This document shows, piece by piece, positions 18,377 to 47,072 of a stretch of 64,000 bases of DNA (its first letter is position 1; each line of letters begins with the position of its first letter). The translations under genes were made by a program, and so were the position numbers. The notes below the pieces were generated by a model. The model saw only the letters and a program-made list of their open reading frames with translations, was not told the origin of the DNA and made no database searches. Where the stretch lies: the NCBI GenBank assembly GCA_050260635.1, contig JBLNCL010000006.1:68808-132807 (forward strand). Direction: 5' to 3'. The DNA comes from Betaproteobacteria bacterium. Lineage in GTDB: Bacteria > Bacillota > UBA5301 > DYFA01.

Positions 18377-20200
18377 ATGCCCATGGATGCGGCGGTTTTC
18401 GCCGCCCTCGCCCGGGAACTCGACTGTGAGCTCAGGGAGGCCCGGCTGGAGAAGATCATCCCGCTCAACCCCCAGGAACTCCGCTTTCTCCTCCGCCTCC
18501 CCTCGGGAGGCGGCCGACCGGAGCGCGCACTGATCGTTTCGCTCGACGGTCCGCTGGCCCGCCTCCACCTGGAGGCCCCCGGCCGCAGCAGCGACGAGCC
18601 GTCCGCCGCCTCTCCGTTCGCGCTGCTCCTGCGGCGGCACCTGCCGGGGTGCCGCCTGAGTGGGGTCCACCATCCGGCCTGGGAGCGAATCCTCCACTTC
18701 ACCTTCATTGGCCCCGCCGACGAGTTCCCCCGCCGGCGCCTGACCTTGATTTACGAGCTCTTTGGCGCCAAGGGGAACATTCTGCTGCTCGACGCCCAGA
18801 GAATCCTCCTAGGCAGCCTGCGCCCCCTTTCTGAGGGGGACAACCGGTTGCAGATCGGCGCTCCGTACGCTGCCCCACCTCCCCCGACGGCTACCCCGGG
18901 GGCGCCTCTGGCCTATCTGCAGCAGGCGATTGCCCTTGCCCCTGCCGACGCCCCGCTCCGCTTCGCTTTGGTGCGCAACGTGGGCGGGTTGGGCCCCTGG
19001 GCGGCCGCGGCGCTCATCCGGGCGGCCGGCCTCGACCCGGACGAACCCTGCGGGGCGATGCCGCCGGACGGCGCGGCTCTCCTCTGCGAGCAGCTGTCCG
19101 CCTTCGCTGAGGACGTGGCCGCCGGGCGCTTCTCCCCCGCCCTCTGGCGGCAGGGCGGCGAGCTGCGCGAGTTTTGGGTCTATCCCGCCCCGGTCCCCCC
19201 CGGCTGGACCGTTGAGCCCCAGGCCAGCGCCAACGAGGCGGTGGCGAGGTTCTTCGCCGAGCAGGTCAGCGCAACCCGCCTCGCCCGGGGCCGGCAGACC
19301 CTCCTCCAGCGCCTCGACGCCCAGCTCGCCCGCCTGGAGCGGAAGCTTCGGGCCCAGCAGCAGGATCTCGCCCGAGCCGAGGCCGCCGACGACCTCCGCC
19401 GGTCGGGAGAACTTATCCTGGCCAATCTTCCCCAGCTAAGCCGGGGCATGACCGTCTTCACCGGCGTGTCTTACGCTGATTCCACCCCTCGTACCGTGTC
19501 CCTCGACCCCCGGCTCAGCCCGCCCGAAAATGCGCAGCGCTACTTTGCCCGCTACCGGAAGGCCAAGCGGGGCCAGGAGGAGGCAGCCACCCGGGTGAGG
19601 GCAACGGAGGAGTTGTTCAAGCGGACCCGTCAGGCCCGCTTCGAGGCGCAGGACGCCGAGAGCCTCGCCGAACTCAAGGCGCTCGCCGCGCAGCTCGTGG
19701 AGGAGGGGATCCTGGAGGAGGCCACCCTCCGCCCCCAGCCTGGCCGCAAAGTTGTTCCGCCGGCCACTCCCGGACCAAACAAGCCGAGCCCGCGCCGCTA
19801 CCGTTCGACCGACGGATACGAGATCCTGGCCGGCCGGAACAGCCGCGAGAACGACTGGTTGACCCTCCGCTCGGGCGCTCCCCACGACCTCTGGCTCCAC
19901 GTTAAGGACCTGGCCGGAGCCCACGTCATCCTCCGCCTGCCGGCGGAAGGGCCGATACCTGAGGGGGCGCTGCGAGAAGCGGCCCAGATCGCCGCCTATC
20001 ACAGTGAGGGGCGGCAGAGTAGCCGGGTTCCGGTGGACTACACTCCCCGTCGCCATGTGCGCAAGGCTCCCCGCGGCGGTCCGGGTCAGGTCTTCTACGA
20101 CCATCACCGGACCCTTTATGTTACCCCCGACCCCGCCCTGGTCGCCCGTCTGCGGGTGAACGACGCTCCCGGCGAGCAGCCGGTGGAGGGTCCGCGGTGA
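18377..20200 (+). CDS. rqcH: RqcH/YloA (NFACT-domain, Rqc2 homolog; 'fibronectin-binding protein A' family) ribosome quality-control factor
   Basis: NFACT-N, coiled coil, and an NFACT-R/DUF814 region (GYEILAGRNSRENDWLTLRSGAPHDLWLHVKDLAGAHVILR). Same position as B. subtilis yloA beside yloB. I placed the start at the MPMDAAV Met, after the SD. Confidence 0.85.
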   Translation: MPMDAAVFAALARELDCELREARLEKIIPLNPQELRFLLRLPSGGGRPERALIVSLDGPLARLHLEAPGRSSDEPSAASPFALLLRRHLPGCRLSGVHHPAWERILHFTFIGPADEFPRRRLTLIYELFGAKGNILLLDAQRILLGSLRPLSEGDNRLQIGAPYAAPPPPTATPGAPLAYLQQAIALAPADAPLRFALVRNVGGLGPWAAAALIRAAGLDPDEPCGAMPPDGAALLCEQLSAFAEDVAAGRFSPALWRQGGELREFWVYPAPVPPGWTVEPQASANEAVARFFAEQVSATRLARGRQTLLQRLDAQLARLERKLRAQQQDLARAEAADDLRRSGELILANLPQLSRGMTVFTGVSYADSTPRTVSLDPRLSPPENAQRYFARYRKAKRGQEEAATRVRATEELFKRTRQARFEAQDAESLAELKALAAQLVEEGILEEATLRPQPGRKVVPPATPGPNKPSPRRYRSTDGYEILAGRNSRENDWLTLRSGAPHDLWLHVKDLAGAHVILRLPAEGPIPEGALREAAQIAAYHSEGRQSSRVPVDYTPRRHVRKAPRGGPGQVFYDHHRTLYVTPDPALVARLRVNDAPGEQPVEGPR

Positions 20201-22545
20201 AGCGGCGCATCAACCCTCTGTACGTGGTCCTGGCCACCCTGATCCTGGCGGTGGAAGGCGGTATCTTTCTCTACCTGAAGGCCACCAACTTGACTGAGCG
20301 ACTGACCGGCCCGGGGTTGGCCGGCCAGGTGGCCGCCGTCAGACGGACGGCCGCCTTCAGCCTGCCCGGGCTGGGCGACGTTCGGGTGGAGGCGCAGCCA
20401 GGCGGCTATGCCACCAGGTCGAGAAGAGACGGCCGCTTCGCCCTGAAGCTGCCCCCTGGCGTCTATGAGGTGACCTTCTCCGCCGCCGGCTATCTCCCAC
20501 ACCGCGAGCGGGTGCAGGTCCTCTCCGCCGGGCCGACCTACCTCTGGCCGGCTCTCTTCCCCCGGCCAACTGGTCCGCCGGTGCCGTCCCTCATGCGCAG
20601 CCTGCGCTCGCCGGGCGACGGGCCGGTGGCCTACAACACAGGGATCATTCTCGACGCCTCCGGGTCCCAGAACGTCATCCCGGACGGTCTCCGCTGGGAG
20701 ATAACGGACGAGGCGGGCCACATCCTCACCGATCCCTACACCCAACCGAGCCGCCCCCTCCAGCTCAAACCCTCGCCGATCCCAGGCAGCTCTCCGCTGC
20801 TCGTCACCTTTGTCCCACCAGCCCCGGGGCGCTACAATGTCCGGCTCTACCTGAAGAATGCCTTTTCCAAGGCCCGCGAGGTGTTCGCCGATTTTTCCGT
20901 CGAGGCGGAGAACCGCAGCCCAGAGGCGGTTCCATTGGTGATCGCCGGCCCCAACCCGCCTGGCTATCGCCCCGATGGGAGGTTCAAGGTAGGCTCTGGC
21001 CTCCGCACGGTTCTCGCCGGGGAGACCGTCTACCTTGCCGCCTGGGCCTTCGACAAGAACTACCCCTCGCCGGAGTTGTACCATCCCGCTGGGCGGCAGC
21101 CGGACGCCTACGGGAAGAACTTTCTTCCCCCCTTGAGCCGATACACCTGGAGATGGCGCCTGTACAGGATGGACGGGTCTCGGCGGAGCGACGTGACGGG
21201 GCTTCTCCGGGCAGACGAGCCGGGGCCAGCGGACCGCTCGCCTTACCCCTGGTTCGTGGCCGAACGGCCGGGGCGGTACCTCGCCTCTCTCTGGGCGGAG
21301 GACCACGACCCCCACGGCTCCCGCCTCGGCAGTCCGACCACCCTGGAGATCACCGTCCTGCCGCGGGAGGGAGCGCTGGTCTCCGAGCAGACGTGCTCCC
21401 AGGATGGCTGCCACCCTGCGCAGCGAACGGCAGCCGCCCTCAGACCACACATGACCTGCCAGTCCTGTCATGGTCCAGGCCAGCCCCACCTGGTCGCCCG
21501 GGACCGGGAGAGCAGGACCGCCACGATGCAGGTGTCCTACGAGGCGGCCCAGTGCGGCCGCTGCCACCGGCAGTACGCCGAGTGGGAGAAGTCCCGTCAC
21601 GCCGACGGTTACGCCTTCGGCTACCAGGAGATCGCCAAGCCGCTCCTCTTGAACTGCGCCAAGTGCCACTATCCCCAGGGTTTCGCCGACGCGGCGGCCA
21701 TCGCCCGGAAGAAACGGGTTGACTTCGGCCAAATCGAGTTCAAGAAGGCGGCCTTCCCAGGGGGGCCGCTGGTGTACGACTTCGATAAACTGCCGGAGCG
21801 AGTCGGTCAGGGAGTCAGCTGCCAGGCCTGCCACGACCCTCATCAAATCGGCCCCCAGAACAAGTTGGGCCTGCGCCTCCCCAAGTCCCAGCTCTGCGGC
21901 TCCTGCCACGAGACCAAGTGGCAAAACGTCCTCCTCGAACAGACCGCCGGCCGGGTCGGCTCCGCCTACGAGTATCCCGGCCGCCAATACGCCAGCCAGA
22001 ACCCCCACAACACTGAAGAAAAGTGCCTGCTCTGCCACATGAGCAAGGACGCGCCAGAGCAGGATGAACACGGCGTGCGCAGGCTCGGCGGCCACACCCT
22101 TCGGATGCGCGACGCCGGCCCGGATGGTAAGCTTGGCGGCTTCGGTCCCGCCCCGGACGATCCCAACCGGCAGCGCGAGGCCTACGGGGCAGACGACCTC
22201 CTGAACCTCGCCCCCTGCCGGCGCTGCCACCTCGAGGCGACCACTTTCGACCTCGGAGGACGCCAAAGGGAGATCTACCAACTCTGGCTCGAACTGGGGC
22301 GCCGGCTGAAGGAGTTGAACCACGGCGTCCTCCCCGGTTACCGGCCGGGAGACAAGTGCGCCACCTGCCACCGCGGGGGAACCCTGCCCTTTGACCACGA
22401 TCCCAAGCTGGTCCTGGAGAACGCCTACACCAACTACAAGCTGGTCAAGAACGACCGGAGCTGGGGCATCCACAACTACCGCTATACCAAGCAGCTCCTC
22501 GAAGACTCCCTGCGGTCGCTGGAGGAGTTGACCCCGACCCGGTGA
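20197..22545 (+). CDS. Membrane-anchored multiheme c-type cytochrome. It has 8 CxxCH motifs, an N-terminal TM helix, a carboxypeptidase-regulatory-like domain and Ig-like domains.
   Basis: 782 aa. N-terminal TM VVLATLILAVEGGIFLYL. CarbopepD_reg-like segment (DGRFALKLPPGVYEVTFSAAGYLPHRERVQV). The C-terminal ~350 aa carry CQSCH, CGRCH, CAKCH, CQACH, CGSCH, CLLCH, CRRCH and CATCH, plus a possible variant CSQDGCH. The GTG start overlaps the rqcH TGA (GTGA). Confidence 0.8.
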   Translation: MKRRINPLYVVLATLILAVEGGIFLYLKATNLTERLTGPGLAGQVAAVRRTAAFSLPGLGDVRVEAQPGGYATRSRRDGRFALKLPPGVYEVTFSAAGYLPHRERVQVLSAGPTYLWPALFPRPTGPPVPSLMRSLRSPGDGPVAYNTGIILDASGSQNVIPDGLRWEITDEAGHILTDPYTQPSRPLQLKPSPIPGSSPLLVTFVPPAPGRYNVRLYLKNAFSKAREVFADFSVEAENRSPEAVPLVIAGPNPPGYRPDGRFKVGSGLRTVLAGETVYLAAWAFDKNYPSPELYHPAGRQPDAYGKNFLPPLSRYTWRWRLYRMDGSRRSDVTGLLRADEPGPADRSPYPWFVAERPGRYLASLWAEDHDPHGSRLGSPTTLEITVLPREGALVSEQTCSQDGCHPAQRTAAALRPHMTCQSCHGPGQPHLVARDRESRTATMQVSYEAAQCGRCHRQYAEWEKSRHADGYAFGYQEIAKPLLLNCAKCHYPQGFADAAAIARKKRVDFGQIEFKKAAFPGGPLVYDFDKLPERVGQGVSCQACHDPHQIGPQNKLGLRLPKSQLCGSCHETKWQNVLLEQTAGRVGSAYEYPGRQYASQNPHNTEEKCLLCHMSKDAPEQDEHGVRRLGGHTLRMRDAGPDGKLGGFGPAPDDPNRQREAYGADDLLNLAPCRRCHLEATTFDLGGRQREIYQLWLELGRRLKELNHGVLPGYRPGDKCATCHRGGTLPFDHDPKLVLENAYTNYKLVKNDRSWGIHNYRYTKQLLEDSLRSLEELTPTR

Positions 22546-22823
22546 ATGGAGACGAGAGCTTTGCCAAGACGGAGGCGGCGGCAGTGAGACAGTGGATGTC
22601 CTGGCTTTTCTTCTTTCTTCTACTGTGGTCGGGAGCGTCGGGCGAGGCACTCGCCCAAGCCGGCTGGCGGTTCAAGGATTACCGCATGGACGCAGAACGC
22701 GAGCTTCGCCTCCAAGGCAAAGCAGTCGGCCTGGGCTTCGACGTCTGCGTCCGGCTGGTCAGGACCAGCGCTGGGGACGAATCGGTCGAGTACAGTCTCG
22801 GGACGAGCTTACTGATGTTCTGA
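22542..22823 (+). CDS. Small hypothetical protein with a signal-peptide-like hydrophobic segment. A possible partner of the cytochrome.
   Basis: The GTG start overlaps the cytochrome TGA (GTGA again). Alternative start at Met 22596 (MSWLFFFLLLWSGASGEALAQAG...). GC3 about 75%. The 3' end overlaps the pepT stop convergently by 15 nt. Confidence 0.35.
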   Translation: MNGDESFAKTEAAAVRQWMSWLFFFLLLWSGASGEALAQAGWRFKDYRMDAERELRLQGKAVGLGFDVCVRLVRTSAGDESVEYSLGTSLLMF

Positions 22824-34263: not shown

Positions 34264-35667
34264 TTACTTTTCGTCCAACCCCAGGGCTTTCCGCCAGGAG
34301 GCGCACAGCTCCCGAGTCCGCTGTTCCGCTAGGCCGGTATATCCCTCCGGTTGCGCCAACACCGCTCGCTGGGCGGGAGTGATGCGGGCAACGTACGGGG
34401 CCAACTCAGCGTTCCCCTCCAGCAGCTGCAGCAGCGGCTGGCCGGTCTTCTCCGCCTCCAGGGTCAGCCGGCGAACCGCCTCGTGGGCGTTGGGGTGGCC
34501 GGCCGCCGCCAGGCAGAGATAAAGCGGCTCCGCCACGAAGCTCTCCCGGGCCTGGGCGAAGTTCCGCGCCATCTGTTCCCGGTGGACCCCCAGCCGCTCG
34601 ATGATCCCCGCCAGCCGGTCAGCTCCCAGAACCAATCCGGCCACCACCTCCACGACGAAGCGGGCGGAGGCGGAGTTGGTCAGGTCGCGCTGATGTTCGG
34701 AGATCTGGTCCAGATAGACCGTCACCATGCGGGGCATGAACTCCTTGTAAAGGCTCTTGACATGCTCGAAGTTCCAGGGATTCCGCTTATGGGGCATGGT
34801 GGACGAGCCGACCTGCTCCGGACTGAAATACTCGCCGATCTCCGCAATCTCGGAGCGCTGCAGGTGGCGGAAGTCGTCGGCCAGGTTGGCCAGGACGCCG
34901 AAGGTGGAGATGAGGGCGTGGAGGTAGTCGGCGGCGAACTCCGGTTCGACGATCTGGGTGGCTGCCCCCGCCGGTTTGAGCCCCAACCGGCCGAGGACCC
35001 CCTCCTCGAAGCGGCGGGCATCCGGCAAGAACAGGCTGGCGGCATTGTAGGCGCCGACTGCCCCGGCGAGCTTCCCCCGGAGGTTCTGGGCGGCAGCCTC
35101 GATCGCCTGGATTCGCCGGCCCAGTCGGTCCACGTAGAGGGCGCAGGCGTAGCCGAAGGTCACCGGGACTGCATGCTGTCCGTGCGTCCGCCCGATCTGA
35201 AGCGTCCCCGCCTCCCGCTCAGCCAGCCGGAGCAGGGCCAGCTCCAAGCGGAGCAAGGTGGGCCGGACCACCTCTTGGGTAGCAGCCCGCAGCCGCAGGG
35301 AGTTGGCTGTGTCCATGATGTCCGCCGAGGTGGCGGTGAAGTGGACCCAGGGACGGGCCGCCTCGCTGACGTGGCGCTGGAGGCAATTGACCAAAGCCCG
35401 GATGTTGTGACGGGTCCGCTTCTCCTCGGCGGCGACCTCCTCGGCGGTGATCCCGGGGATTGCCTGTCGGATCTCTTCTGCCACCTCAGTGGGACAGAGC
35501 CCCTCCGCCGCCAGCCCTTCCACCAGGGCCGCTTCCACCTCCAACTGATACCGAAGGTAGGCGGCCTCGGAGAGATGGGCCGCGAGCCTGTCCCACAGCG
35601 CAGGGTTAGCGGCCCGGTACCGCCCGTCGAGTGGGCTAAGGTTGTTCCAGAAGCTGTCCTGCACCAT
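34264..35667 (-). CDS. purB: Adenylosuccinate lyase
   Basis: [17 protein letters not shown]… ATG at 35667, preceded by a GAGGGGGTG SD. The listed start 35688 is a GTG inside the terminator U-tract. Confidence 0.9.
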
Positions 35668-35680
35668 CGCACCCCCTCGA

Positions 35681-35724
35681 AAAAGCACACGGCGAGTAGG
35701 TTTCGCCTGTGAAACCTACCCGCC
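35681..35724 (-). terminator. Attenuator-like intrinsic terminator in the purE-purB leader
   Basis: Minus-strand RNA GGCGGGUAGGUUUC-ACAGGC-GAAACCUACUCGCC, a 14-bp stem with one G-U pair. It is followed by GUGUGCUUUUU, which abuts the purB SD. Confidence 0.5.
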
Positions 35725-35891
35725 GGGGCTTTTATCCCTCTAGGGTGTAGTCCAAAGCCGGCCTTCGCGCCCGCCTCGGACCTGCATCACTCGGTCCAGA
35801 CCCCCTCTCGGGCGGAACCCTAGATGCACTTCCAACTGGGGCTATGCGGTTGTCTGTACGTCACCATGTTACCAGACCCGCCAACTGATTG

Positions 35892-36455
35892 TCAACGCGG
35901 CCGGTGCGCGCCGGCCGCCCCGCTTCCTCCTCCACCCCCCGGGACGTACGCCGGAAGCCCCTCGGCAGCAACCTTCTCCGCCTTGGCACGGACGCCGGCC
36001 GCCTGGGCATGGCGGAAGTCACGCAGCGCCTCCCGGAGGCGCTGATCGGAGAGGCTCAGGATCGACACCGCCAAGAGCGCCGCATTGCGCGCCCCGTTGA
36101 TCCCGACGCACGCCACCGGTACCCCTGGCGGCATCTGGACGATGGAGTACAGGGCGTCCACCCCGCCCAGCCCCTTGCCGGCCTCAAGGGGCACACCGAT
36201 CACCGGCAGGGCGGTATGGGCTGCCAGGACGCCCGGCAGGTGAGCCGCCCCGCCGGCTCCGGCGATGATTACCCCGAGGCCCCGGGAGGCCGCCGTCTTG
36301 GCGTACTCGGCCGCATCCTCCGGCGTCCGGTGCGCTGAGAGGACCGCCACCTCAAACCCCACCTTGAACTGCTCCAACGTCTTGGCCGCCTCGCGCATCA
36401 CCGGCAGGTCGGAGTCGGACCCCATCACAATCCCAACCCGATGCTGATCGGACAT
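35892..36455 (-). CDS. purE: N5-carboxyaminoimidazole ribonucleotide mutase
   Basis: …[14 protein letters not shown]…AHRTP… Start ATG at 36455 after a GGAGGAA SD. The listed 36491 overlaps pyrE. Confidence 0.88.
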
Positions 36456-36474
36456 CCGCCGTTCCTCCATATCC

Positions 36475-37086
36475 TTATCGCCCATGGCCAAGGCCCCGGC
36501 TGCCCCGTTGCGTCAACGGTACCCCTTTGGCGCAGAGAGGGCACTCCTCCGGCACCCAGCTGACCGCCTCCACCCGCCACAAGGGGGCGAACGGCACGCC
36601 GAACGAAGCTCTGCCCCCGCTCCGGTCGACCAGAGCGGCCACGCCGGCCACCGCCACTCCGCTGGCCTGCAGCAAGGCCAAGACTTCCTTCACCGAGCCC
36701 CCGGTGGTTACCACGTCCTCCACCACCAGCACCCGCTCCCCCGACTTCAGGGCGAACCCCCGTCGCCAGGTCATTTTCCCCTCCACCCGCTCCGGAAAGA
36801 GAAACCGGACGCCAAGGTGGCGCGCCACGTCGTAGGCCAGAATCGCCCCGCCGGTCAAAGGGCCCACGACGGTCTCGATCCCGGCGCCGGCGAACCTCCC
36901 GGCCATGGCCGCGCAGAGGCGGGTGAGGTACTCCGGGTGCTGCAATACCGCAAACTTCTCCAGGTAGACGTCGGAGTGGCGGCCGGAGCTGAGCTTGAAG
37001 TGGCCGGTGAGATACGCCCCGGTCTCCCGGAACCAGCCCTCGATCGTCTCCGGCGGCAGTTCCGCCTCAAGCCCTGCCCGCTCCAT
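36475..37086 (-). CDS. pyrE: Orotate phosphoribosyltransferase
   Basis: PRTase motif [16 protein letters not shown] at 37086. The listed TTG at 37107 overlaps pyrD. Confidence 0.88.
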
Positions 37087-37094
37087 GCTCTTGC

Positions 37095-38072
37095 TCACCC
37101 CCTGCAAGCCTCGCCCAGGCCTCCCCGCCCGGGCAGCGCCACCCCGGTTAACTTGCCCACCGACCTGATTCCCCGGTCACGGCAAAACTCCTCCAGCCCC
37201 TCGCTCACCCGCAGCGGGGCCTTAGGATCGCCAAAGAGCGCCGTCCCCACCGCCACGAGGGAAGCGCCGGCCATCAGGAACTCCAGGGCATCAGCGGCGG
37301 TGGCGATGCCCCCCATCCCCAGGATCGGCACCTTCACCGCCTGCGCGACCTGGTAAACCATCCGCACCGCCACCGGCCGGATCGCTGGTCCCGAAAGCCC
37401 CCCCGTGACATTCCCCAGCACCGGCCGCCCGGTCTGCACGTCGATCGCCAGCCCGAGCAGCGTGTTGATCAGGGAAAGCCCGTTAGCGCCGCCGGCTTCC
37501 GCCGCCCTGGCCACCTCGACCACGTCGCTGAGGTTCGGCGAGAGCTTCACGAAGAGCGGCAGGCGGGTCCGCTCCCGCACCCGCCGGGTGAGCCGCTCCA
37601 CCACTGTCGGGTCGGTTCCGAAGGCCATCCCGCCTTTCCGGACGTTGGGGCAGGAGAGGTTGACCTCCAGCGCCGCCACCCCCGGCTGCCCGCTGAACCG
37701 CTCTGCCAGTTCCTCGTACTCGGCCTCCGACTCCCCGGCGATGTTCACCAGGATCGGGATGCCCAAGGGCACCAGAGCCGGCAAGTGGCGGGCGAGCACC
37801 GCCTCCACGCCCGGGTTCTCCAGCCCCACGGCGTTGAGAAGCCCGGCCGGTGTCTCGCAGAGGCGCGGCGCGGGGTTGCCGGCCCGCGGCTTGAGGGTCG
37901 TCCCTTTGACGATGATCCCGCCGAGCCGGCGGGGATCGAAAACTCCGGCGTACTCCAGCCCGTACCCGAAGGTCCCCGAGGCGACCAAAACCGGGTTAGG
38001 GAACCGAATCCCCGCCACCGTCACCCCGAGCTCCACGCCCTTGCTCGTCTCCTCCCCCCGTCGTCCGCTCAC
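37095..38072 (-). CDS. pyrD: Dihydroorotate dehydrogenase (class 1B) catalytic subunit
   Basis: 325 aa (…GIRFPNPVLVASGTFGYG…). FMN-binding TIM barrel. Confidence 0.9.
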   Translation of the reverse strand: MSGRRGEETSKGVELGVTVAGIRFPNPVLVASGTFGYGLEYAGVFDPRRLGGIIVKGTTLKPRAGNPAPRLCETPAGLLNAVGLENPGVEAVLARHLPALVPLGIPILVNIAGESEAEYEELAERFSGQPGVAALEVNLSCPNVRKGGMAFGTDPTVVERLTRRVRERTRLPLFVKLSPNLSDVVEVARAAEAGGANGLSLINTLLGLAIDVQTGRPVLGNVTGGLSGPAIRPVAVRMVYQVAQAVKVPILGMGGIATAADALEFLMAGASLVAVGTALFGDPKAPLRVSEGLEEFCRDRGIRSVGKLTGVALPGRGGLGEACRG

Positions 38073-38850
38073 GCCTTCACCACCTCGAAGCAGGGGCCGT
38101 CGCGGCAGACCCGCAGGGGGCCGCCCCTCCCCCCCTCCCCCGGCGCTCCGGAAGACAGGCCGATCGGGCGCAGGGCCAGGTCGGGGGCGAGGCGCCCGTC
38201 CGGCCAGGCGCAGCCGGCGCAGGCTCCGACGCCGCAGGCCATCCGCTCCTCCACGCTGACCTGGCAGCGGAGACCGAAACCGAGGACCTGCCGGGCAACA
38301 GCCACCAGCATTCCCCGTGGTCCGCAGGCATAGACCGCTGCCGGTGGCGGGCCGCCCGCGGCCAGTCGCTGCTCGACCGGCGCCGTCACCAGCCCCGGGA
38401 GCCCGGCCGAACCGTCCTCGGTGGCTACCGCCACCTCCACCCCCAGCCGTCGCAGCTCCTCAAGCCCCGGGAGGTCCGCTGCGGTGCGCCCGCCCAGGGC
38501 GGCCCAAACGCCGCTTCCAGCTTCCCTCAGCCAGCCGGCCAGAAAGAGGAGGGGAGCCGTCCCGATCCCTCCCCCGACCAGCCACACCGCGCTGCCCGCC
38601 GGAGGCAGGGCGAACCCCCGCCCTTGCGGCCCGTGGAGCCCTACCTGCGCCCCCGGCGCCAGTGCGGCCAGCCACTCGCTGGCCGGTCCACTCACCCGGA
38701 CGAGCAGCCGGATGAGCCCCCGCTCCCGGTCAACCCCGCTCACGCTGAACGGGCGCCGGGTGATCCGGTGCGGTCCGCCCTCCACCATCACGAACTGGCC
38801 CGGAACCGCCGTCCGGGCCACCTCGGCGGCCGGCAGCCAAAGCTCCCGGA

Positions 38851-38854
<4 letters not shown>
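38069..38854 (-). CDS. pyrK: Dihydroorotate dehydrogenase electron-transfer subunit
   Basis: 261 aa. FAD/NAD domains. C-terminal 2Fe-2S Cys cluster ([12 protein letters not shown]). Confidence 0.88.
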
Positions 38855-42116
<3,262 letters not shown>

Positions 42117-42120
<4 letters not shown>

Positions 42121-43199
42121 CTTTCCATAAACGCCAGGAATCGTTCGAACAAATGCTCCGAATCGTGGGGACCAGGACTCGCCTCGGGGTGGTACTGGAC
42201 TGAGAAGACCGGCAGCGTCCGGTGGACCAGCCCTTCCACCGTTCCGTCGTTGAGATTCCGGTGGCTCACCTCGACCTCGGCCGGAAGGCTCTCAGGGTTC
42301 ACGGCATAGCCGTGGTTCTGGGCGGTAATGTAGACCCTCCCCGTCGCCAGGTCCTTGACCGGGTGGTTGCCCCCCCGGTGGCCGAACTTCAGCTTGTAGG
42401 TGTCGCCGCCCAGGCCCAAGGCGAGCAGTTGGTGGCCGAGGCAGATGCCAAAGAGGGGCACCCGCCCCACCAGTTCCCGCACCGTCTGCACAGCGTACGG
42501 CACCGCCTTGGGGTCGCCCGGCCCGTTACTCAACACCACCCCGGCCGGCTCCGCCGCCAGGATCTCCGCCGCCTTGGTCCCCGCCGGAAAGACAGTCACC
42601 GCGCACCCTGCCGCCACGAGAGACTCCACGATGTTTCCCTTCGCCCCGAAGTCCAGAAGAGCGACCCGCCTCTCTCCGGCTCCCGCCGTAAAGGGCGCCT
42701 TAACCGTAACCTCTCGCACCAGGTCCAGCTCGCCCAGGTCTGGGACGCTGCGGGCCGCCTCGACTAGCTCCATCGGGTCGGCGTCGCCCGGGGCGATGAT
42801 CCCCCGCATCGCTCCCCGCTCCCGCAGCCGCCGGGTGATGGCCCGCGTGTCTACCCCGGAAAGCGCCACGACGTTATGCAACTCCAGGTACTCACCGAGG
42901 GTCTGCTCGGCTCGCCAGTAGTTGGGGTGGGCGCACAGTTCCCGGACAACCAGCCCCCGGGCGTGCACCCCGAGCGACTCCTGATCCTCGGAGTTGGCTC
43001 CGTAGTTGCCGATCAGCGGGTAGGTCATGGTCACGATCTGCCCGGCGTAAGAAGGATCGCTCAGAATCTCCTGATAGCCGGTCATGGAGGTGTTGAAGAC
43101 CACCTCGCCCGCCACCGGCCCCTCGCCATGCAGCTCTCCACTGAAGACCGATCCATCTTCCAGGGCCAGAAGCCCCCGCCGCGCCGAGAACAGCTTCAC
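42117..43199 (-). CDS. carA: Carbamoyl-phosphate synthase small (glutaminase) subunit
   Basis: 360 aa. GATase triad region (ICLGHQLL). Confidence 0.93.
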
Positions 43200-43246
43200 C
43201 GTTCCACCGCCTCTTCGTCGTCTGACGCAGGAACCCTCCTGACATC

Positions 43247-44215
43247 TCAGTTCATTCTACCATCGGCTGCATACTTATGCAACGGCTTGCATATTTTCTC
43301 CAGATCTCGCCGGATCGCCAAGACCGCCTCCCGGGCCGCCTCGGCGTAGGCCTCCGGGCCGAACCGCTGCCAGTACTCCGGCCGCCGGAAGGCAAAGACG
43401 ACGCTTCGGGCAGCGTTCACGACCGCCCCCCGCCCCTGTGGGTCGAAGCAGGGCGCCGCGTCGGCCGCCCCGCCCCCCTGGGCCCCGTAGCCCGGGACCA
43501 GGAAAGGTGTCGCCGGCATCAGCCGCCGCAGACGGGCCGCCTCCGCCGGGTCCGTTCCTGCCACTACTGCCCCTAGAGCAGAGTACCCGCTTAACCCACG
43601 GTGGGCCGCCCCCCAGCGGTCAACCAGCTCCGCCAGGTGATCAGAAAAGGGCCGCCCGCCGCCTCCCGGCCCGTCCCCGGCCAGTTTGCCGAAGTCCTGG
43701 AGCTCCCGTCCGTCGGGGTTCGAGGTCCGGACAAGGGCGAAGGCGCCCTTCCCCGCAGCGGCGTAGGCCAAGAACGGCGCCACGCCCTCCCAGCCGAAGA
43801 GCGGGTTGACCGTCACGGCGTCGGCGTCCAGACCTGTCCGGCCCAGGCAGGCCTCGGCGTACGCCCGGGCGGTTGACCCGATGTCCCCCCGCTTGGCGTC
43901 AAGGATCACCAGCAGCCCCCGCCGGCGGGCCTCTCGGACGACCGCTCGCAGCGCCGCCCACCCGGCCGCCCCATGCTGTTCGAAGTAGGCCGCCTGCGGC
44001 TTGACCGCCGGAACCAGGTCGGCCACGGCCGCCAGGATTTCGAGGCAGAACCGCCCGACCGCGGCCGCGACCGCCCGATGGCCCCGCCCGTACCGCAGCT
44101 CCGCCTGGACCAGCAACGACTCAGGCAACTCCGAGGGGATCGGGTCGAGTCCAACCACCAGCGGCGTGCCCTTCGCCTCCACGGCCGCCGCCAGACGGTC
44201 GGCGAAGTTGTTCAT
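43247..44215 (-). CDS. pyrF: Orotidine-5'-phosphate decarboxylase, long (type 2) form
   Basis: The conserved start MNNFADRLAAAVEAKGTPLVVGLDP makes an ATGA-type overlap with the pyrC stop. The listed ORF (to 44347) has a 44-aa extension. Confidence 0.85.
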   Translation of the reverse strand: MNNFADRLAAAVEAKGTPLVVGLDPIPSELPESLLVQAELRYGRGHRAVAAAVGRFCLEILAAVADLVPAVKPQAAYFEQHGAAGWAALRAVVREARRRGLLVILDAKRGDIGSTARAYAEACLGRTGLDADAVTVNPLFGWEGVAPFLAYAAAGKGAFALVRTSNPDGRELQDFGKLAGDGPGGGGRPFSDHLAELVDRWGAAHRGLSGYSALGAVVAGTDPAEAARLRRLMPATPFLVPGYGAQGGGAADAAPCFDPQGRGAVVNAARSVVFAFRRPEYWQRFGPEAYAEAAREAVLAIRRDLEKICKPLHKYAADGRMN

Positions 44216-45487
44216 ACCAGCACCTCTCCTTGCCACATGACGAGCCGCCCGCCCACTACCGTCGCCGCCGGTCGCCCGGTCAGCCGCCACCCTGCAAACG
44301 GCGTGTTCCGGCTCTGGGAGACAAAGTCCGACGGGTTCACCGTCCACTCTGCCTCCGGGTCGATCACCGTGAGGTCTGCCACCGCTCCGACTTTGACGGC
44401 GTTCGCTGGGAGTCCCAAGACCCGCGCCGGCCCGTAGGACATCCGCTCCACCAGTCCGGCCCAGCCCAGCCTCCCTCGGCGAACCAGCCGGTCCACCACA
44501 AGCCCGACCGCCGTCTCCAGCCCCACCATGCCCGGAGGGGCTAGACCAAACTCGACCTGCTTCTCCTCGAGGGTGTGGGGAGCGTGGTCGGTCGCCACAG
44601 CGTCGATCAGGCCCTTCACCAGCCCGTCCTGGAGCTCGGCGCAGTCTCCCTCCGTCCGCAGGGGCGGCGAGACTCGGGCGTTGGTGTCGTACCCCCGGAC
44701 CGCCTCTTCGGTCAAGAAAAGGTGGTGAGGCGTCACCTCACAGGTAACGCTTACCCCCCGCCGCTTCGCCTCTTTAATGAGGCGGAGTGCCCCGGCCGTC
44801 GAGACGTGGGCGACATGGAGCCGGGCACCCGTCAACTCCGCCAGGATGAGGTCCCTGGCGACCATGGTCTCTTCCGCTGCCGCCGGGATCCCCGGTAGCC
44901 CGAGCCTCGTCGAGAGCGCACCCTCGTTCATCACCCCGTCAGCCGCCAGGTTCCGGTCCTCGGCGTGGACGATCACGGGGCGGCCGTGCCCTTTAGCGTA
45001 CTCCAGCGCCCGCCGGAAAAGGGCCGCGTTCATCACGGCACTCCCGTCGTCTGAGAAAGCCACCGCCCCCGCCCGTGCCATGTCGCCCATCTCTGCCAGT
45101 TCCTCGCCAGCTCGCCCCTTCGTCACCGCCCCGATGGTGTAAACGCGCACGGCGCTCTCCGAGGCCGCCCGGTCGAGGACAAAGCGAACCATGGACTCCC
45201 GGTCGATGGCCGGGTTGGTGTTGGGCATCGCCGCCACCGCCGTGAACCCGCCCCGGGCAGCAGCCCGGGTGCCGCTCCGAATCGTTTCCTCGTCCTCCCG
45301 CCCCGGCTCCCGCAGGTGGACGTGCGGATCGACGAAACCGGGCAGGACCACCATCCCGGCGATCTCCCTGACCTCGGACGCCGTCCGCGGAGCTAGGTTC
45401 TTCCCCAGCTCGACAATCAAGCCGTCGGCGATCCGGACATCCAATACGCCGTCCAGTCCCTGCTTCGGGTCAACCACCCGGCCTCCT

Positions 45488-45504
<17 letters not shown>
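44212..45504 (-). CDS. pyrC: Dihydroorotase
   Basis: 430 aa (…VDPHVHLREPG…). Amidohydrolase fold. Confidence 0.9.

Positions 45505-47072
<1,568 letters not shown>

Follow-up and report, generated by a model that had tools for sequence, protein, structure and literature searches.

Riboswitches built on the ykkC scaffold can shift specificity with very few mutations: subtype 1 responds to guanidine, 2a to ppGpp, 2b to PRPP and 2c to (d)NDPs, and 2d is an orphan. Each subtype keeps its own company of genes, namely guanidine-related genes (carboxylase, efflux) for subtype 1, BCAA, glutamate synthase and natA genes for 2a, de novo purine genes and codA for 2b, NUDIX/HAD hydrolases for 2c and EamA/TauE transporters for 2d, and in the published ON-switch design of subtypes 2a and 2b a terminator competes with the 3' part of the aptamer. 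The PRPP class was described from 257 Firmicutes examples, and the published 2b consensus reads nGAAAGYGYRYCU-A-GGGUUCCR...G-GnCCRAGYGRYRCR...YACACCR--nAGGG-AYAAAAGCCCAGR-nGGR-YAGGUUUCRC. For the singlet 2b riboswitch upstream of purB in H. modesticaldum, PRPP antitermination has been demonstrated in vitro and with a B. subtilis reporter (Sherlock et al., 2018, eLife 7:e33908). The T. mathranii PRPP aptamer, known from its crystal structure (Knappenberger et al., 2018, eLife 7:e36381), is part of a tandem guanine-PRPP device. In this structure P0 stacks under P3, A5 and G6 contact the beta-phosphate of PRPP (PMC6031431), and C77 and C78 contact its 5-phosphate and ribose. G96 gives the T. mathranii aptamer a 46-fold preference for PRPP and is more than 97% conserved in PRPP aptamers, whereas in subtype 2a the position is absent or filled by A, C or U; a G96A mutation switches specificity approximately 40,000-fold.

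In the stretch of bacterial DNA analysed here (the window; 64,000 nt), purE and purB are separated by a non-coding spacer of 224 nt (35668-35891, minus strand) that contains no conserved ORF. Judged by its sequence, this spacer is predicted, with a probability of about 0.9, to be a singlet PRPP riboswitch of ykkC subtype 2b, acting as a transcriptional ON switch for the purB-purC-purS-purQ-purL-purF-purM-purN-purH-purD block (Table 1). The grounds from our own data are family membership by sequence and structure, covariation, a conserved genomic position, a conserved promoter, and the conserved overlap of aptamer and terminator. On this reading the element had gone unannotated but is otherwise an ordinary representative of an established class, and it calls for no new mechanism.

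Table 1. Features of the purE-purB region; positions are those of the window.
Feature	Position	Strand	Basis or remark
purE	35892..36491	-	TIGR01162, 200 bits against a cut-off of 150; stop TGA 35894-35892; not part of the riboswitch
-35 hexamer TTGACA	35890..35895	-	contains the purE stop TGA (35894-35892)
-10 hexamer TAACAT, TG-extended	35866..35871	-	promoter match
PRPP riboswitch aptamer (predicted), full length	35704..35834	-	covariance model of published PRPP aptamers
P0 5' strand UGGA	35831..35834	-	pairs with UUCA 35713-35710
P1/P1a/P1b three-part helix	35783..35828	-	holds CUAGGGUUCCG, GGACCGAG and the G48/Y49 equivalents 35790 (G), 35789 (U)
P2 hairpin	35749..35782	-	variable sequence, pairing kept; 4 of 6 pairs changed on both sides
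ACACC junction	35744..35748	-	CC = C77/C78 equivalents
P3 hairpin GGG-AUAAAAG-CCC, invariant	35726..35738	-	alignments
3' pocket strand and P0 3' strand	35710..35725	-	C95, G96 (35724), G97...G105, then UUUCA
Intrinsic terminator hairpin	35690..35725	-	15 bp (9 G-C), 6-nt loop, then UGUGCUUUUU
Terminator U-tract UUUUU	35680..35684	-	sequence
purB Shine-Dalgarno GAGGGGG	35672..35678	-	sequence
purB (adenylosuccinate lyase)	34264..35667	-	TIGR00928; ATG at 35667; first gene of the regulated block

With gathering thresholds, Rfam reported only a tRNA across the whole window and missed the element. Under permissive settings, the spacer matched RF00442 (ykkC/guanidine-I) over the full length of the model (35834-35719, model positions 1-107 of 107; E = 2.4e-9) at 55.2 bits, below the gathering score of 63, which is what a ykkC subtype 2 variant should give; no PRPP-specific Rfam family matched the element. 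An independent test of membership used a covariance model built from 12 published PRPP aptamers only, among them those of H. modesticaldum purB, F. ignava purC and T. mathranii, all three validated by experiment, and including no loci of the present analysis. Four Paenibacillus rows that MAFFT had mis-registered around ACACC were dropped before model building, and the P1b pairs were omitted from the model because MAFFT aligned this variable hairpin inconsistently. Run over the 64-kb window, the model gave one match only, which lies at 35834-35704 on the minus strand, covers model positions 1-116 of 116 and, with 81.9 bits (E 1.1e-19), exceeds the RF00442 score by 27 bits. A first, sequence-only reading could not match the leader by eye to the purine (G-box) or the ZTP (pfl) riboswitch, and this stands: neither RF00167 nor RF01750 matched at gathering score or, on the spacer, at E up to 10. 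That reading had also ventured a divergent or novel purine-responsive element. The match to an established riboswitch family makes the element, in substance, known rather than novel, and it fits the published 2b consensus at essentially every conserved position; the idea of a purine-pathway-responsive riboswitch whose terminator implies conditional read-through is supported. Other weak Rfam matches in the spacer (MIR162_2, PtaRNA1, GNAS-AS1, HCV_SL1412 and PyrR205; E 0.75-9.7) were dismissed as chance. A tandem guanine-PRPP arrangement was likewise rejected: RF00167 gave no match on the spacer even at E up to 10, and approximately 25 nt would lie between the predicted transcription start and P0. 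As no guanine aptamer was found upstream, we regard the element as a singlet.

The spacer had been described as a non-coding, structured leader, and its folding energy bears this out: the minimum free energy of -105.8 kcal/mol (z = -3.97) beats all 200 of 200 dinucleotide-preserving shuffles, and the leader ends in a terminator-like hairpin with a U-tract. Its 5' part displays the ykkC fold, with a P1/P1a/P1b stack, P2, P3 and the core motifs CUAGGGUUCC, GGNCCRAG, ACACC and GGGAYAAAAGCCC. For comparison with the crystal structure, T. mathranii numbering was rebuilt from published primers, whose wild-type 3' end reads ...GCCCGGGAGGAUAGG... and whose G96A mutant reads ...GCCCGAGAGG.... Under this numbering, the 3' portion of the window element reads GCCC-C95-G96-G97-C98-G99-G100-G101-U102-A103-G104-G105-UUUCA, with G96 present at 35724, and the equivalents of A5 and G6 (35830 and 35829) directly follow the P0 5' strand. 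The contact positions of the T. mathranii aptamer are alignable and conserved (A5, G6, G48, Y49, C77, C78, G96, R101, A103, G104 and G105 are common to both), with position 101 a purine (G) in the window. From T. mathranii to the window, C49 changes to U, G95 to C, A98 to C and A101 to G. Position 49 (35789) is thus a pyrimidine, as in 2a and 2b, where guanidine-I has A46; among published 2b aptamers, 72 read CC[AG]AGUG (U49) and 166 read CC[AG]AGCG (C49). Departures from the 2b consensus are few: a C for R after ACACC (a C-C opposition with position 98), a C at position 95, and a linker of 5 nt rather than 3 nt before P3, each of which recurs in relatives or in published members.

The singlet upstream of purB in H. 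modesticaldum is a close counterpart, sharing the downstream gene purB, the lack of a guanine aptamer, the conserved core, G96, the P0 extensions, and an ON-switch layout in which a terminator overlaps the 3' side of the aptamer. The window element differs from it in having U49 rather than C, 5 nt rather than 3 nt in the linker before P3, a long and GC-rich P2, and a promoter that overlaps the stop codon of a purE closing a pyr operon. It shares the overall fold and most tertiary-contact nucleotides with guanidine-I (RF00442), but differs from it in the binding-pocket nucleotides (A46 to U), P0, ligand and regulon. The ppGpp riboswitch (2a; Sherlock et al., 2018, PNAS) resembles the element in its near-identical consensus, in P0, in having a pyrimidine as residue 49 and in switching ON by way of a terminator, but it has no G96 and its targets are BCAA, glutamate and natA genes.

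Relatives were collected with a purB scan of one genome per species, yielding 80 loci, mostly from uncultured Bacillota and many labelled Limnochordia or Limnochordales, of which the best has 82% PurB identity. The PRPP model detected the aptamer in 41 of the 80 purB loci, the closest relative (L001) included; G96 is kept in all 41, and the aptamers nearly always end 50-250 nt before purB. The sequence-only reading had proposed a covariation analysis of orthologous purE-purB spacers, and a comparison of the aptamers revealed covariation across the whole structure: in an alignment of the window, 25 relatives and three validated aptamers, scored for the full subtype-2 architecture including P0, 96.6% of cells were paired (against 31-51% in slid controls), with 16 pairs changed on both sides, a level reached by none of 500 shuffles. 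A model-based alignment of the 41 loci had 97.5% of cells paired and 11 pairs changed on both sides, and RNAalifold independently recovered P1, P1a, P1b, P2 and P3. P0 covaries as well, at three of its four pairs, one of which reads AU in 12 sequences, GC in 12, GU in 4 and UA in 1. The window and L001 differ by compensatory or wobble changes, located in P2 (where a C-G pair becomes U-A) and in the P1b loop, and the pocket, P0 and terminator arms are identical save for one G-C to G-U change.

Further observations concern individual relatives. A Halanaerobiales MAG (L031:699-869) carries a PRPP aptamer (80.3 bits) approximately 1.4 kb upstream of purE and not between purE and purB, indicating that the position of the switch relative to purE varies between lineages. 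At two loci (L016:2732-2848 and L017:2731-2847), UUUUUUAUGC replaces the conserved GGAAGUGC; these aptamers, which lack the A5/G6 pocket residues as well as the 5' strand of P0, have the lowest scores among complete matches (approximately 73 bits) and may be decaying or functionally altered copies. One relative has a PyrR binding-site RNA upstream of its pyr genes (L068:260-362; RF00515, 62.5 bits), an equivalent of which was not detected in the window at gathering threshold.

The hairpin and U-tract just before the purB Shine-Dalgarno sequence had been recognized from the sequence; its stem, however, is 15 bp and not 14, extendable to 17 bp with one mismatch, and the U-tract begins 3-5 nt past the stem, a slight departure from the canonical layout. 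Nucleotides 35725-35711, the terminator's 5' arm, correspond exactly to aptamer positions 95-109, that is, the pocket strand (G96, G99-G105) together with the P0 3' strand, so that a ligand-stabilised P0 and the terminator are mutually exclusive. The same overlap occurs in approximately 34 of 38 loci, with the 5' arm starting at position 95 or 96, and the 3' arm co-varies with aptamer positions 101 and 102 (GGAUAGG/CCUAUCC, GGGCAGG/CCUGUCC and GGGUAGG/CCUACCC). The terminator hairpin alone contributes -27.5 kcal/mol, and the terminator conformer (-85.2 kcal/mol) is favored over the aptamer conformer (-63.0 kcal/mol) by approximately 22 kcal/mol in secondary-structure energy alone. From this difference in stability, the default state would be OFF, and read-through would need ligand capture during transcription. 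By analogy with published work on homologues, PRPP is likely to be the ligand, the polarity is likely to be ON, and control is likely to be kinetic, that is, co-transcriptional.

Transcription probably starts from a sigma-70-type promoter just upstream. The site, TTGACA-18-TAACAT with an extended TG (35895-35866), matches at 10 of 12 positions and occurs once, where 0.2 sites are expected in shuffles; it would place the transcription start at approximately 35859, roughly 25 nt before P0. In approximately 27 of 38 related loci, a perfect TTGACA, a 17- or 18-nt spacer and a good -10 likewise precede the aptamer, and this conservation implies that the element heads its own transcription unit. On the model of its homologues, the switch would work as follows: The promoter, whose -35 overlaps the purE stop, would start the transcript, with read-through from pyr-purE possibly adding further transcripts, and the nascent RNA would adopt the ykkC architecture (P1/P1a/P1b, P2 and P3). 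Abundant PRPP would be captured in the pocket formed by the equivalents of A5/G6, G48/U49, C77/C78 and G96-G105, closing the short P0 (35834-35831 with 35713-35710). With 35725-35710 locked in the aptamer and unpaired with 35704-35690, no terminator would form and the polymerase would enter purB. When PRPP is low, the much more stable 15-17-bp terminator would form instead, and transcription would stop at the U-tract (35684-35680).

Four other readings of the spacer deserve consideration. The ykkC scaffold has been respecified by very few mutations, and the clade marked by U49, a GUAGA/CUAGA linker and C98 shares a few non-consensus positions; the same fold might thus have drifted in this clade to another phosphorylated ligand, such as an NDP (as in 2c) or a phosphoribosyl compound. 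Against this, the residues seen to contact PRPP in the crystal are all conserved or conservatively replaced, the same variant positions are found in published 2b members, and the context is exclusively that of the purine pathway, with no NUDIX/HAD or EamA/TauE association, which also sets the element apart from subtype 2c (NDP) and the orphan 2d. We give such a drift a slim chance. Slimmer still is the chance of a ppGpp riboswitch (ykkC 2a), by which purine synthesis would be tied to the stringent response: the consensus sequences of 2a and 2b are nearly identical, with P0 and pyrimidine 49 in both, and their separation rests on G96 and gene context, but G96 is found both at 35724 and in all of the related aptamers, and the genes downstream belong to the purine pathway, the defining association of subtype 2b, and not to BCAA, glutamate synthase or natA.

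It is hardly credible that the spacer houses a leader-peptide or protein-mediated (PurR/PyrR-like) attenuator, or a constitutive terminator of the pyr-purE operon. A 15-codon ORF does exist (35867-35820), as had been pointed out, and, since purE and the hairpin have no other terminator between them, transcripts from upstream would end at the hairpin too. Against a leader peptide, the ATG of this ORF overlaps the -10 hexamer, its stop is the invariant UAG of the aptamer motif CUAGGG, and only 7 of 38 loci have an ATG ORF in this frame (31 lack one), with unrelated peptides, such that we attribute the ORF to chance. The 130 nt that precede the hairpin make up a covarying and deeply conserved aptamer, for which neither a protein site nor a plain terminator would have any use, and the protein-mediated attenuator that had been suggested is unnecessary to explain the anatomy. 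Ending pyr-purE transcripts is itself compatible with a riboswitch and is not an alternative to it. We see next to no prospect that the element is a guanidine-I riboswitch (ykkC subtype 1), even though RF00442 is the only Rfam family to match it and half of 20 relatives score above that family's gathering score. The diagnostic A46 is a U (35789), guanidine-I has neither the P0 helix nor the conserved extensions at the 5' and 3' ends, the genes downstream serve purine biosynthesis and not guanidine carboxylation or efflux, subtype 2 RNAs are published not to bind guanidine, and the 55.2 bits fall under the RF00442 gathering score, with the PRPP-only model 27 bits higher.

The predicted PRPP riboswitch sits at a boundary between two biosynthetic gene blocks. 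Downstream lies purB-C-S-Q-L-F-M-N-H-D, followed by pepT, and upstream purE comes last in a pyrB-pyrC-pyrF-carA-carB-pyrK-pyrD-pyrE-purE block (35892-46489, minus strand), in which the pyrE and purE ORFs abut or overlap; the order pyrE-purE-aptamer-purB recurs in at least 15 relatives. A terminator within a tightly overlapped operon, as initially envisaged, is therefore not what this locus presents: purE closes the pyr block, which leaves the riboswitch outside any tightly overlapped pur operon, and the element has a promoter of its own that is conserved in relatives. The reported absence of purK between purE and purB was confirmed within the 64-kb window, where no purK or ATP-grasp PurK-like protein was found among ORFs of at least 200 aa. 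The purE product is a class I-type N5-CAIR mutase by its NCBIfam name, and it contains (36491-35892) an SAHRTP motif, typical of class I N5-CAIR mutases needing PurK; pur blocks without purK occur in many Clostridia-like genomes.

Two further observations concern the window. The 3'-terminal part of purE contains, immediately before the -35 box, a GC-rich inverted repeat (CGGCCGG...CCGGCCG, 35889-35925), which has a weak, chance-level Rfam match (PtaRNA1, E 1.2) and encodes the Gly/Ala-rich C-terminal tail of PurE past residue 174, the last matched by the purE family model. Elsewhere, ORFs of 844 aa (20116-22650, minus strand) and 782 aa (20197-22545, plus strand) overlap almost completely on opposite strands, and the 844-aa ORF has no Pfam match.

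The interval from the purE stop to the aptamer holds no terminator-like hairpin in the window, nor does it in 18 of 20 relatives, and transcripts from upstream therefore probably run into the riboswitch. This raises the possibility, which we put forward tentatively and consider doubtful, that the riboswitch terminator serves as a PRPP-gated junction between the nine-gene pyr-purE unit and the ten-gene pur unit. If so, the pyr-purE transcript arriving from upstream and the promoter-proximal leader would both be cut short at low PRPP, high PRPP would fuse pyrimidine and purine biosynthesis into one read-through transcript of approximately 20 kb, and in this Bacillota clade the location of purE on the gate's pyrimidine side would be a design feature that is conserved yet unexplained.

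The label of the host sits uneasily with a class described from Firmicutes. A protein identical to PurB is on record as MGE5552706.1, 'MAG: lyase family protein [Betaproteobacteria bacterium]'. All of the closest loci come from Bacillota or Limnochordia MAGs, and the window shows Bacillus-type synteny (rlmN-rsmB-fmt-priA-coaBC, and yicC/yloC-P-type ATPase/yloB-NFACT/RqcH/yloA), which points to Bacillota; the taxon label is probably wrong, or the contig was mis-binned.

A literature search on the PRPP riboswitch and Rfam yielded nothing that alters this picture, and the main value of the finding lies in annotation, as current Rfam-based annotation misses or mislabels such elements. A standard Rfam scan passes over the element in the window, since its score is below the RF00442 cut-off and no PRPP-specific family responds. 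A different error is expected among its relatives: ten of 20 related PRPP-type aptamers (L007, L014, L016, L029, L032, L047, L063, L068, L076 and L080) exceed the RF00442 gathering score, at 63.7-74 bits, and, although they bear the 2b signature and precede purB, routine annotation would mislabel them 'Guanidine-I riboswitch'. The analysis adds approximately 40 members to the PRPP class from MAG lineages, many labelled Limnochordia or Limnochordales, and brings to attention the conserved pyrE-purE-riboswitch-purB arrangement, in which the main residual curiosity is that purE, a purine enzyme, is conserved with the pyr genes on the pyrimidine side of what may be a PRPP-gated junction. Identity as a PRPP riboswitch would explain how the pur genes are regulated in an uncultured, high-GC Bacillota lineage without a PurR/PurBox system.
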